From: Candidatus Melainabacteria bacterium GWF2_37_15 | GTDB taxonomy: Bacteria > Cyanobacteriota > Vampirovibrionia > Gastranaerophilales > UBA9971 | Length of the DNA: 64,000 nt | Reading direction: 5' to 3' | Assembly: GCA_001784565.1 (NCBI GenBank) | Contig: MFRL01000027.1 | Location: forward strand, 660 to 64,659 | Shown here: in pieces, positions 20,146-20,994 of the stretch | How positions within the stretch are numbered: position 1 is the stretch's first letter | How the letters are laid out: each line of letters begins with the position of its first letter | Made by a program: the position numbers and the translations under genes | Notes under the pieces: model-generated | What the model saw: only the letters and a program-made list of their open reading frames with translations | Databases searched by the model: none | What the model was told of the DNA's origin: nothing

Positions 20146-20994
20146 ATGAGCTATAAAAATGATCATTTGCTGACTATTTCAAATAAATACGGCGAAGCCA
20201 GCAGCGACGCCAAAGCAATGGTCTTTGAAACTTATGACAGATTACGAGATTTAACAGTGAGCGGCCCAGGCATTGGGGGCGCTTCTGCATATGGTAATAT
20301 AGGCAATTTCTTTATAAATCTTTCAAAATTAATCGGCCCTTCAAATTATATGCCTGTACTTGGATCTTCTGCGATTAATATTCCGGGAACATCCTACTCA
20401 TCACCGATTAGCGGGGGATATTCATCAATCCCCGGTGTACAGTCAGCATTTGGAATGAGCAGCCTCGGTAAATACCCGGGCTTTCCAACAGGAGGCGCAG
20501 CCTCACTTTATAGTATAATGGCGCTGGGTAGTTCTCTTGTTCCTCTTGCAAGTACGTTTTCAATTGGAGGAATGCCTACAGGCGGAGCATCAGCTCTCAC
20601 CGCAAGTATACCCGGAGGGAATTCATACGTTCCTGCTGTCGGAGCTTTTACCGGATTAACCTCTGCTGGTGCCGGGATTGGTGATATTACCCTTCCTGTT
20701 GCCGGAGTAGTGGGCGGAATAGGTGGCTTAATGACACATATGGCGCCTTATTTTGGGCCAAGCGGCCTGGTGGCAGCGCTTGCCGGAAACTTGCTGAGCG
20801 GGTATTCAGGTGCGGCTGTTAGTGGCTACAATTATATAACCAGCAGAATTATTACAAATGCGGATACTATTCTTACAATGAAGATTAAAAACCTTGAAAC
20901 AACAGTGAAACAGTTGGATACTCAAGGTGAGGTAATCAAAAAAATGCTGAAAAGCGCTATTGAAGCTGATTCAAAAGTTGCAAATGACCTTTAA
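20146..20994 (+). CDS. Hypothetical Gly/Ser/Ala-rich protein with helical N- and C-termini
   Basis: 282-aa ORF with a purine-rich RBS (AAGGAAGAGGAAGAGAAGGA). It has an internal duplication (FPTGGAASLYS / MPTGGASALTAS) and a C-terminal coiled coil. Confidence 0.55.
   Translation: MSYKNDHLLTISNKYGEASSDAKAMVFETYDRLRDLTVSGPGIGGASAYGNIGNFFINLSKLIGPSNYMPVLGSSAINIPGTSYSSPISGGYSSIPGVQSAFGMSSLGKYPGFPTGGAASLYSIMALGSSLVPLASTFSIGGMPTGGASALTASIPGGNSYVPAVGAFTGLTSAGAGIGDITLPVAGVVGGIGGLMTHMAPYFGPSGLVAALAGNLLSGYSGAAVSGYNYITSRIITNADTILTMKIKNLETTVKQLDTQGEVIKKMLKSAIEADSKVANDL

Follow-up and report, generated by a model that had tools for sequence, protein, structure and literature searches.

A Melainabacteria-specific family of Gly/Ser/Ala-rich proteins and its probable partners in a five-gene module preceded by a predicted sigma-28-type promoter

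In the genome of Candidatus Melainabacteria bacterium GWF2_37_15 (assembly GCA_001784565.1) a stretch of 64,000 nucleotides (contig MFRL01000027.1, positions 660 to 64,659, called the window in the following) contains an open reading frame (ORF), here named gene B, which codes for a Gly/Ser/Ala-rich protein. The question raised by this locus is what kind of protein B encodes and with which partners it acts. An earlier note on this DNA had compared the protein with flagellar axial proteins, on account of its layout and of a sigma-28-type promoter, and had named a membrane glycine-zipper protein and a fibre-forming protein as equal possibilities. The comparison of homologous loci indicates that B very probably functions together with the products of four neighbouring genes, A, X, C and D, with which it forms the module A-B-X-C-D (Table 1).

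The product of B is identical to the hypothetical protein A2Y25_10755 of the same bacterium. The homology search returned 523 proteins, and the best 120 of these were almost all full-length, with 42-82% identity; all 120 were unnamed or labelled 'hypothetical', none had a precomputed Pfam domain, and their taxon, wherever it was informative, was Melainabacteria or Gastranaerophilales. With one genome taken per GTDB species, at least 508 B loci were confirmed, including those of Vampirovibrio chlorellavorus, of Vampirovibrionales and of many gut Gastranaerophilales. An exhaustive hidden Markov model (HMM) search of 1.84 billion representative proteins with the B profile gave 75 matches, of which approx. 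10 were full-length clusters and the rest were shorter and fragment-like, and these matches did not suggest any relatives outside the B family. At the level of sequence comparison these data show that the B family is restricted to the Melainabacteria (Vampirovibrionia) and nearly ubiquitous there, and that B is a real gene under purifying selection. The explanation of B as a chance ORF was rejected, since the sequence is conserved; thus the lack of conservation among orthologs, which the earlier note had named as an outcome that would count against it, was not what the homologs revealed.

Loci with A and B, most of them with C and D as well, were also encountered in assemblies labelled Gammaproteobacteria, Muribaculaceae, Clostridium sp., Alistipes senegalensis, Eubacteriales and Anaerovoracaceae (L007, L012, L020, L034, L037, L041, L056, L061, L062, L067 and L073). 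Since these loci carry A directly before B, together with C and D, the assemblies are probably mislabelled or contaminated bins and not cases of horizontal transfer.

To examine the tie between B and its neighbours, every ORF of 85 loci was typed with the HMMs of the families. Only the immediate neighbours of B are conserved, as seen in three loci around distant B homologs. Gene A was located directly upstream of B in 83 of the 85 loci, and in the two exceptions B stood at the contig start or at most approx. 115 nt from it. X was present in 54 loci, C in 66 and D in 61. X has the appearance of a junk ORF, yet each of those 54 loci has a single homologous ORF at the same position. X is a relative of C: the HMM of the C family retrieves some of the X sequences, and both proteins end in ...N-x-x-R. 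In the window the start of B lies 58 nt past the stop codon of A, and no terminator comparable to the one after D could be found between B and C. Because of this terminator after D and the lack of one between B and C, A-B-X-C-D looks like one transcription unit in the window. Cys is strongly depleted in A (0.24%), B (0.13%) and C (0.05%), compared with 0.87% in neighbouring ORFs, and inspection by eye revealed no evident signal-peptide-like N-terminus in the five window proteins.

The terminator at 22071-22139 looks bidirectional and is situated between the operon and an ABC-transporter ATPase gene at 22227. Tetratricopeptide repeat (TPR) proteins flank the module in the window (17319-19520, minus strand, 733 aa, divergent) and in one distant locus (L004, 1985-2785 and 9584-10420), and not in the others. 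Type III chaperones of class II belong to the TPR proteins; the flanking position is probably a coincidence.

It is in the upstream neighbour A that the layout with conserved helical ends and a variable centre, which the earlier note had ascribed to B, is striking; A, and not B, is flagellin-like in its layout. The AlphaFold2 (AF2) model of A is an antiparallel two-helix hairpin with helices at residues 3-48 and 60-116 and a predicted local distance difference test (pLDDT) value of 90. The first approx. 32 and the last approx. 42 residues are almost invariant, with 23 invariant columns in 65 sequences; the invariant ends read MGLAASQARFLxLTARKSDLE... and ...VDTQQQxVQTEIDAVKKVIDKNIDMTFKTFA. The length of A varies from 105 to 764 aa, and all of this variation is inserted at the tip of the hairpin, where the insert may reach approx. 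650 aa. The inserts are rich in Thr, Asn, Asp and Tyr, and no known domain was found by Pfam in those of eight long A variants. Between two genomes whose B proteins were 94% identical the middle of A was 57% identical, and where B was 64% identical it fell to 21%, while the termini of A stayed at 63-94% throughout the same genome comparisons (B 64-94%). Two tandem copies of A were present in 29 of the 85 loci. Among these 85 loci short forms (105-155 aa) occurred mostly in environmental and Vampirovibrio genomes, the window included, and genomes with an animal-gut label had A proteins of 180-764 aa. The family comprises 260 detected homologs with no Pfam domain, and every source that names a taxon is from Melainabacteria or Cyanobacteriota. 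In its evolution A matches the signature of the flagellins, which combine a terminal hairpin that does not vary with a hypervariable domain at the tip, occur in tandem copies and have a late flagellar promoter.

D has a constant length of 104-113 aa, apart from one outlier call of 136 aa, and is devoid of an insert. It shares with A the motifs MGL..SQ.R...L..R..DLE and, at the C-terminus, KNI...F. The D family was defined from a single HMM iteration; on further iteration the D model converges onto the A family and the two merge, which indicates that D is paralogous to A.

The earlier note had considered B to be sigma-28 driven. This claim has been strengthened in so far as the site is conserved upstream of A, but the site precedes A and not B, and B is connected with it through its presumed co-transcription with A from the upstream promoter. 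No promoter of B's own was found in the window. The site at 19671-19697 is the sole 13/13 consensus match in the 64-kb window, and the conserved form found upstream of both A and C is TAAAG-N14-15-GCCGATAA. Sites matching at least 11 of the 13 positions were present upstream of the first A in 49 of 79 loci (62%), almost all of them 34-50 nt before the start, and upstream of C in 37 of 61 loci (61%), mostly 135-175 nt before the start; there was no clear site of this type for C in the window. In random 300-nt windows of the same loci the background was 9 of 998 (0.9%), which corresponds to an approx. 70-fold enrichment.

In one gut clade a conserved block replaces the site upstream of A (approx. 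180 aa); it reads ...AATATTAAAATAT..TAGGC...GTATCAA..ATTGACATGCCAAAA..ATCATTA... and is located at approx. 940-1040 in L038, 4340-4440 in L045 and 4335-4435 in L060. The block with its TTGACA-type element suggests a changed promoter class. The second-best site of the window, CAAAG-N14-GCCGATAA (12/13, 14552-14578, minus strand), is found approx. 45 nt upstream of a gene for a 262-aa protein (13719-14507, SurE-like by eye). It overlaps the 3' end of a PilZ-domain gene and may be due to chance.

With respect to B itself, much of the earlier description was borne out. The ORF and all of the segments quoted in the note were located as described, LPVAGVVGGIGGLM being residues 183-196 and GLVAALAGNLLSGYSGAAVSGY residues 207-228. 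The residue counts agreed with a centre dominated by Gly, Ser, Ala, Pro and Tyr: residues 41-232 contain 20% G, 15% S, 12% A, 8% P and 6% Y, while the whole protein (pI 7.8) has 14.9% G, 12.8% S and 10.3% A and neither Cys nor Trp. The internal duplication (residues 112-136 and 142-166) gave a local alignment score of 54, compared with 25 +/- 5 in shuffled sequences, and none of 2000 shuffles reached this value; the G-[FM]-P-T-G-G-A motif is kept in each of the two repeats across the B homologs. The AF2 model built from an alignment of 118 homologs has helices at residues 6-38, 48-72, 182-202 and 206-281, while residues 68-184 are modelled as coil with low confidence. This confirms that the termini are helical and that the Gly-rich centre looks unstructured. 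The mean pLDDT was 55, with approx. 80 at the termini.

The idea of conserved ends around a variable centre applies to B only weakly and had to be narrowed for the centre. The fraction of the majority residue was 0.82 at residues 1-40, 0.70 at 73-119, 0.63 at 179-232 and 0.73 at 233-282, and 0.46 at 120-178. The last of these is the sole stretch of variable length (35-99 aa), while 73-119 and 179-232 are of fixed length. Since 73-119 and 179-232 are conserved in the alignment of orthologs, the variable centre is reduced to a window of approx. 60 residues in an otherwise constrained protein. Invariant motifs of B are MSYKND at the N-terminus, NIPGTSY, PYFGPxG and NAD...L...N.E...K. M1, Y3, D6, E28, D31, R34 and D35 were invariant among 27 aligned sequences, and E28, D31 and D35 in all 118 homologs too. 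The C-terminal helices of B and A aligned end to end, although weakly (hhalign E=1.1e-3, probability 21%). A segment within residues 21-40 (window 20206-20265), RLRDLTVSG, resembles RVRELTVQA of the flagellin ND1 helix (E. coli FliC 80-132); the resemblance is insignificant (hhalign E=0.13).

Table 1. Positions in the window of the module genes, of segments of B, of the predicted control elements and of flagellum-related genes.
Feature	Position	Strand	Description
Sigma-28 (FliA/SigD)-type promoter	19671..19697	+	TAAAG-N14-GCCGATAA; 37 nt before the ATG of A; predicted to drive A-B-X-C-D
Gene A	19735..20088	+	117 aa, acidic (pI 4.6), helical hairpin
Gene B	20146..20994	+	ATG start, 282 aa, Gly/Ser/Ala-rich, conserved helical termini
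B residues 6-38	20161..20259	+	N-terminal helix, best-conserved part of B
B residues 112-166	20479..20643	+	Internal duplication (G[FM]PTGGA...VP x2); flanks/overlaps the sole length-variable stretch 120-178
B residues 183-228	20692..20829	+	Pair of helices, Gly/Ala-rich and of marginal hydrophobicity, with GxxxG / small-xxx-small motifs
B residues 245-278	20878..20979	+	C-terminal amphipathic helix (AF2; hhalign to A helix)
Gene X	21007..21231	+	74 aa, pI 10.6, directly after B
Gene C	21391..21669	+	92 aa, pI 10.5, helical, conserved NP motif, C-terminal ...N-x-x-R
Gene D	21696..22034	+	112 aa, A paralog, pI 7.8
Intrinsic terminator	22071..22139	+	After D; two consecutive GC-rich hairpins (14 and 18 bp stems), T-/A-runs on either side
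FliW	4454-4903	+	Pfam 126 bits
CsrA	4891-5196	+	Pfam 90 bits
FliA/WhiG-like sigma factor	59661-60299	-	212 aa; overlaps FlhB by 8 nt; outside the operon
FlhB	60292-61374	-	PF01312, source name 'FlhB'; outside the operon

The module proteins were compared with known families. In Pfam, at E<=1, B and X had no match, and A, C and D gave only sub-threshold noise, which in A and D was of the coiled-coil kind. X was searched against Pfam only, and A, B, C and D also against NCBIfam, where B had no match at E<=0.1 and nothing meaningful was obtained for any of the four, and against PHROGs, where none of the four had a match at E<=0.01; by this comparison A, B, C and D do not appear as members of phage families. 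The B profile found no match among the PDB sequences at E<=10, and the A profile met coiled-coil noise only (best E 0.22). Foldseek searches of the PDB with the AF2 models of A and B gave nothing at E<=0.001; above this E-value the model of A matched generic coiled-coil hairpins only, with CT398 as the best (E=0.11, template-modelling score (TM) 0.48) and PspA, prefoldin, Rad50, the IpaB coiled-coil and the TelA-LXG/LapA3/LapA4 complex as other weak matches. Rfam gave nothing credible over 19400-22400. The signatures Flagellin_N PF00669, Flagellin_C PF00700, Flg_bb_rod PF00460 and FliD_N/C were absent in B (Pfam, E<=1), which was also unmatched by the Gly-zipper Pfam families at this threshold and by the Pfam models of type III hydrophobic translocators, with which the resemblance is one of layout alone. 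In hhalign comparisons with E. coli K-12 proteins the A profile had no similarity to FliC, and the B profile reached E=0.13 with FliC and E=0.55 with FliD (probability below 0.5% in all three comparisons). The remark of the earlier note that the terminal motifs of axial proteins are missing is in agreement with these negative results of Pfam, of the PDB sequence search and of hhalign. Judged by these searches, the five module proteins belong to no described family, and no description of the B family or of the operon was found in the literature.

How, then, could these proteins work together? The reading that we favour, though only tentatively, has an A/D polymer exported by the flagellar type III apparatus, with B as its constant structural partner (base, cap or tip). 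Transcription of the operon A-B-X-C-D would depend on the late sigma factor of the flagellar system, sigma-28/FliA. A and its insert-free paralog D would polymerise via the hairpin and form a thin filament or fibre on the cell surface that exposes the variable domain, comparable to flagellin, to the injectisome needle or to EspA-type filaments. B would join this assembly through its conserved N- and C-terminal helices, and its Gly/Ser/Pro/Tyr-rich middle together with the two glycine-zipper-like helices could form a flexible plate or a membrane-active element. All five proteins would exit via the flagellar type III export apparatus, for which FlhB in the same genomes, the absence of an evident signal peptide and the Cys depletion are indirect evidence, and X and C may serve A and D as dedicated partners or chaperones.

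The module shares with flagellin and the other axial proteins the sigma-28-type late promoter, the absence of an evident signal peptide, the low Cys content and the helical termini, and A shares with flagellin the invariant terminal hairpin, the hypervariable tip insert and the tandem copies. It differs from flagellin in that no sequence or profile similarity exists and in that the core of A has approx. 100 aa, whereas D0+D1 of flagellin has approx. 250 aa. In B the centre, rich in Gly and Ser, is conserved for the most part and is predicted to be unstructured, unlike the folded variable domain of flagellin and the folded head of the FliD cap, whose FliD_N and FliD_C models leave B unmatched. 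The injectisome sets (PrgI/MxiH, EspA, IpaB/SipB) offer another comparison: here too a small hairpin protein (A/D) adjoins a protein with marginally hydrophobic helices and a coiled coil (B) and two further small proteins (X and C), and the IpaB coiled-coil was among the weak fold matches of A. No significant similarity was found in this case either, no injectisome genes were seen and the flagellar type III apparatus alone is in evidence, and X and C are basic in contrast to the acidic or TPR chaperones of injectisomes. We know of no host-cell target for the Melainabacteria that carry the module.

Several observations weigh against this reading. B was modelled by AF2 at a mean pLDDT of only 55 with the centre unmodelled, and Foldseek with this low-confidence model gave no match. 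The weak similarity between the C-terminal helices of B and A could be due to coiled-coil bias. The fold of A resembles only generic coiled-coil hairpins, cytoplasmic ones (PspA, prefoldin, Rad50, CT398) included. Type III chaperones are usually acidic, whereas X and C are very basic. The FliA-like sigma factor of the window scores under the family cut-off (its best NCBIfam model, FliA_WhiG, gave 78 bits), and Pfam recognised region 4 alone. The co-occurrence of the module with the export apparatus is counted over three genomes. Finally, approx. 38% of the loci are without a recognisable sigma-28 site, and the clade of L038, L045 and L060 has a conserved TTGACA-type element and is without X, C and D nearby. 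Because of these two facts sigma-28 control is not universal, and because of the approx. 38% of loci without a site the placing of the module in the sigma-28 regulon, which depends on the predicted promoter, is less certain than the tie of B to the module.

The export apparatus is represented in the window by FlhB, next to the sigma factor gene. FlhB homologs were also found on contigs carrying A and B in two other genomes, and in one of them FlhB is again followed by a sigma factor gene (L085 10001-11758). Approximately 75% of the Gastranaerophilales keep a partial flagellar set (flhB, fliI, flgG and others), for which a role in secretion was postulated and no cargo was named (bioRxiv 10.64898/2026.04.24.720558). 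MEL.A1 is without filament, cap, junction and L/P rings (PMC3787301), and only three of nine Gastranaerophilales genomes have complete flagellar sets (PMC4040986). In V. chlorellavorus Coder and Starr reported pili in bundles beside the flagellum (cited in PMC4451040). In ACD20 all genes for a functional flagellum were reported (PMC3787301; ACD20 is named in PMC4040986), and ACD20 carries B as well (P0030). Since ACD20 has both B and the reported full set, B would be additional to the canonical flagellar set and not a replacement for a part of it. In the literature library searched, FliA, sigma-28 or FliW did not occur together with Melainabacteria, Vampirovibrio or Gastranaerophilales in any paper.

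The module is a concrete candidate for the cargo of the reduced flagellar systems, because it was found in many gut Gastranaerophilales genomes. Reduced flagellar exporters of the Buchnera type, also proposed for Gastranaerophilales, agree with the present case in that the module occurs in gut Gastranaerophilales and has a late flagellar promoter; they differ in that the cargo is undefined there, and the link to the module is one that we infer. The complete picture would be that A-B-X-C-D is an unrecognised, flagellum-exported surface appendage under sigma-28 control, with A as the filament, D as a minor subunit and B as the base, cap or membrane-active tip, and that it is the missing cargo which explains the retention of the reduced apparatus in approx. 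75% of the gut Gastranaerophilales, where flagellin, cap, junction and outer rings are lost and flhB, fliI and flgG are kept. In this full form the proposal is unlikely.

The alternative that survives best, although we regard it as somewhat unlikely, is that nothing is secreted and that B is a membrane-associated glycine-zipper hairpin (residues 183-228) in or on the inner membrane, which anchors a cytoplasmic A/D coiled-coil scaffold, e.g. a polar landmark or a cytoskeletal element tied to flagellar placement. It is favoured by the motifs in the conserved, fixed-length 54-aa segment of B at 179-232, in which P184, P201 and G207 are invariant: the overlapping GxxxG pairs G187-G191 and G190-G194 (GVVGGIGG) and small-xxx-small at 207-227, in two adjacent helices, are like those of Gly-zipper_Omp, Gly-zipper_YMGG and Rick_17kDa_Anti proteins and of VacA-type pores. 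The Kyte-Doolittle 19-residue maximum had a median of 1.62 and was at least 1.6 in 58% of the 118 homologs, and the cytoplasmic hairpins PspA/Vipp1, to which the fold of A is similar, and the absence of an evident signal peptide are consistent with this explanation as well. However, a simple non-positional sum on the Hessa scale, which is a rough calculation, gave positive insertion energies in 118 of 118 homologs (minimum 1.6, median 3.7 kcal/mol), and no 19-residue window of any of them had a negative value. Unlike the Gly-zipper proteins, B is unmatched in Pfam, its hydrophobicity is, by this calculation, below the level expected for stable insertion, and the zipper takes up 46 of 282 residues. 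B is probably not a classical integral membrane protein and is not predicted to integrate via Sec. A classical Sec-inserted protein was rejected on the basis of this rough estimate of hydrophobicity, and the ordinary membrane glycine-zipper protein suggested in the earlier note is not favoured. The marginal hydrophobicity of residues 183-228 would be of the kind found in secreted membrane-active or fibre-forming proteins. A cytoplasmic location of the scaffold is at odds with the fast-evolving Thr/Asn/Tyr-rich insert of A (up to approx. 650 aa), the tandem copies and the strong Cys depletion, all of them features that are typically met in proteins exposed at the cell surface and not in cytoplasmic ones.

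Less well supported, and in our opinion improbable, is the explanation that the module supplies the late flagellar regulon with a set of regulators or chaperones, like HP0958/FlgZ/CT398, FliJ, FlgM and FlgN, with B as a largely disordered hub or linker. The best Foldseek match of A is the flagellum-associated hairpin CT398, and HP0958 (FlgZ) and CT398 share with A the long antiparallel coiled-coil hairpin tied to the flagellar regulon. Some A homologs are named 'predicted nucleic acid-binding Zn-ribbon protein' by JGI, a label which we take to be the COG of HP0958/CT398. The centre of B is predicted to be unstructured, the basic proteins X and C could be RNA-binding, and the window encodes the post-transcriptional control pair FliW-CsrA, a flagellin-sensing partner switch. 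On the other hand, the structural matches, CT398 included, are all non-significant and generic; the Zn-ribbon domain is absent in A, and A carries hypervariable inserts; regulators are normally without hypervariable inserts of 100-650 aa and without tandem variable copies; and the 'disordered' centre of B holds the invariant motifs NIPGTSY and PYFGPxG.

Very improbable is that B is secreted and acts as a glycine-zipper protein that forms pores, or as an effector of the bacteriocin-like kind, with the helical neighbours as targeting or immunity partners, in the manner of LXG toxins with their Lap hairpins or of glycine-zipper toxins. The marginally hydrophobic Gly-rich helices of B and the helical-hairpin neighbours would fit such a system, and TelA-LXG/LapA3/LapA4 and the IpaB coiled-coil were among the weak matches of A. 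But B is well conserved and keeps a fixed gene order in at least 508 loci, which polymorphic toxin loci do not; of the two partners A and not B is the variable one; and no genes of type VII or type I secretion were seen in five inspected neighbourhoods, the window included. That B is a very divergent canonical flagellar component (cap FliD, junction FlgK/FlgL or flagellin), in spite of its terminal helices, the late-class promoter, the lack of Cys and the local RLRDLTVSG/RVRELTVQA resemblance, was rejected and is close to refuted by the absence of Pfam, NCBIfam and hhalign similarity and by ACD20, which carries B beside its reportedly complete flagellar genes.

A few other genes of the window deserve mention. 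The FliW and CsrA genes overlap and are followed by a gene for a small TPR protein (5183-5890). The PilZ-domain protein (14562-15182) matched the N-terminal domain of YcgR weakly and below the threshold. Two proteins encoded on the minus strand (54237-55745 and 47073-47678) have Gln/Asn/Tyr/Ser-rich low-complexity N-termini (e.g. MGIFAGYVNQNAYQSNFNSFGNYGQNFGQYGQSPYQNSYQ...) and EF-hand/dockerin-like calcium-binding motifs, and no other family was matched by them.

The Melainabacteria are the closest non-photosynthetic relatives of the cyanobacteria and include widespread symbionts of the human gut, and their cell biology is almost wholly inferred from genomes. The present analysis adds an operon of five genes that is specific to the class and almost universal in it, that has a flagellar late-type promoter and whose products fall outside the described families. 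A junk-like ORF of 74 aa, X, turns out to be a conserved gene in it, and the lead protein A mimics the evolution of flagellin with its invariant hairpin, hypervariable tip and tandem copies. If the proteins are exported, the partial flagellar systems of most gut Gastranaerophilales would have a first candidate for their cargo, and if they are exposed and fast-evolving, they would be candidate determinants of host interaction or antigenicity. If they form an appendage, a flagellum-derived organelle of secretion or adhesion would exist in a lineage of human-gut symbionts. In the most conservative reading, five unannotated components are added to the sigma-28 regulon of the Melainabacteria.

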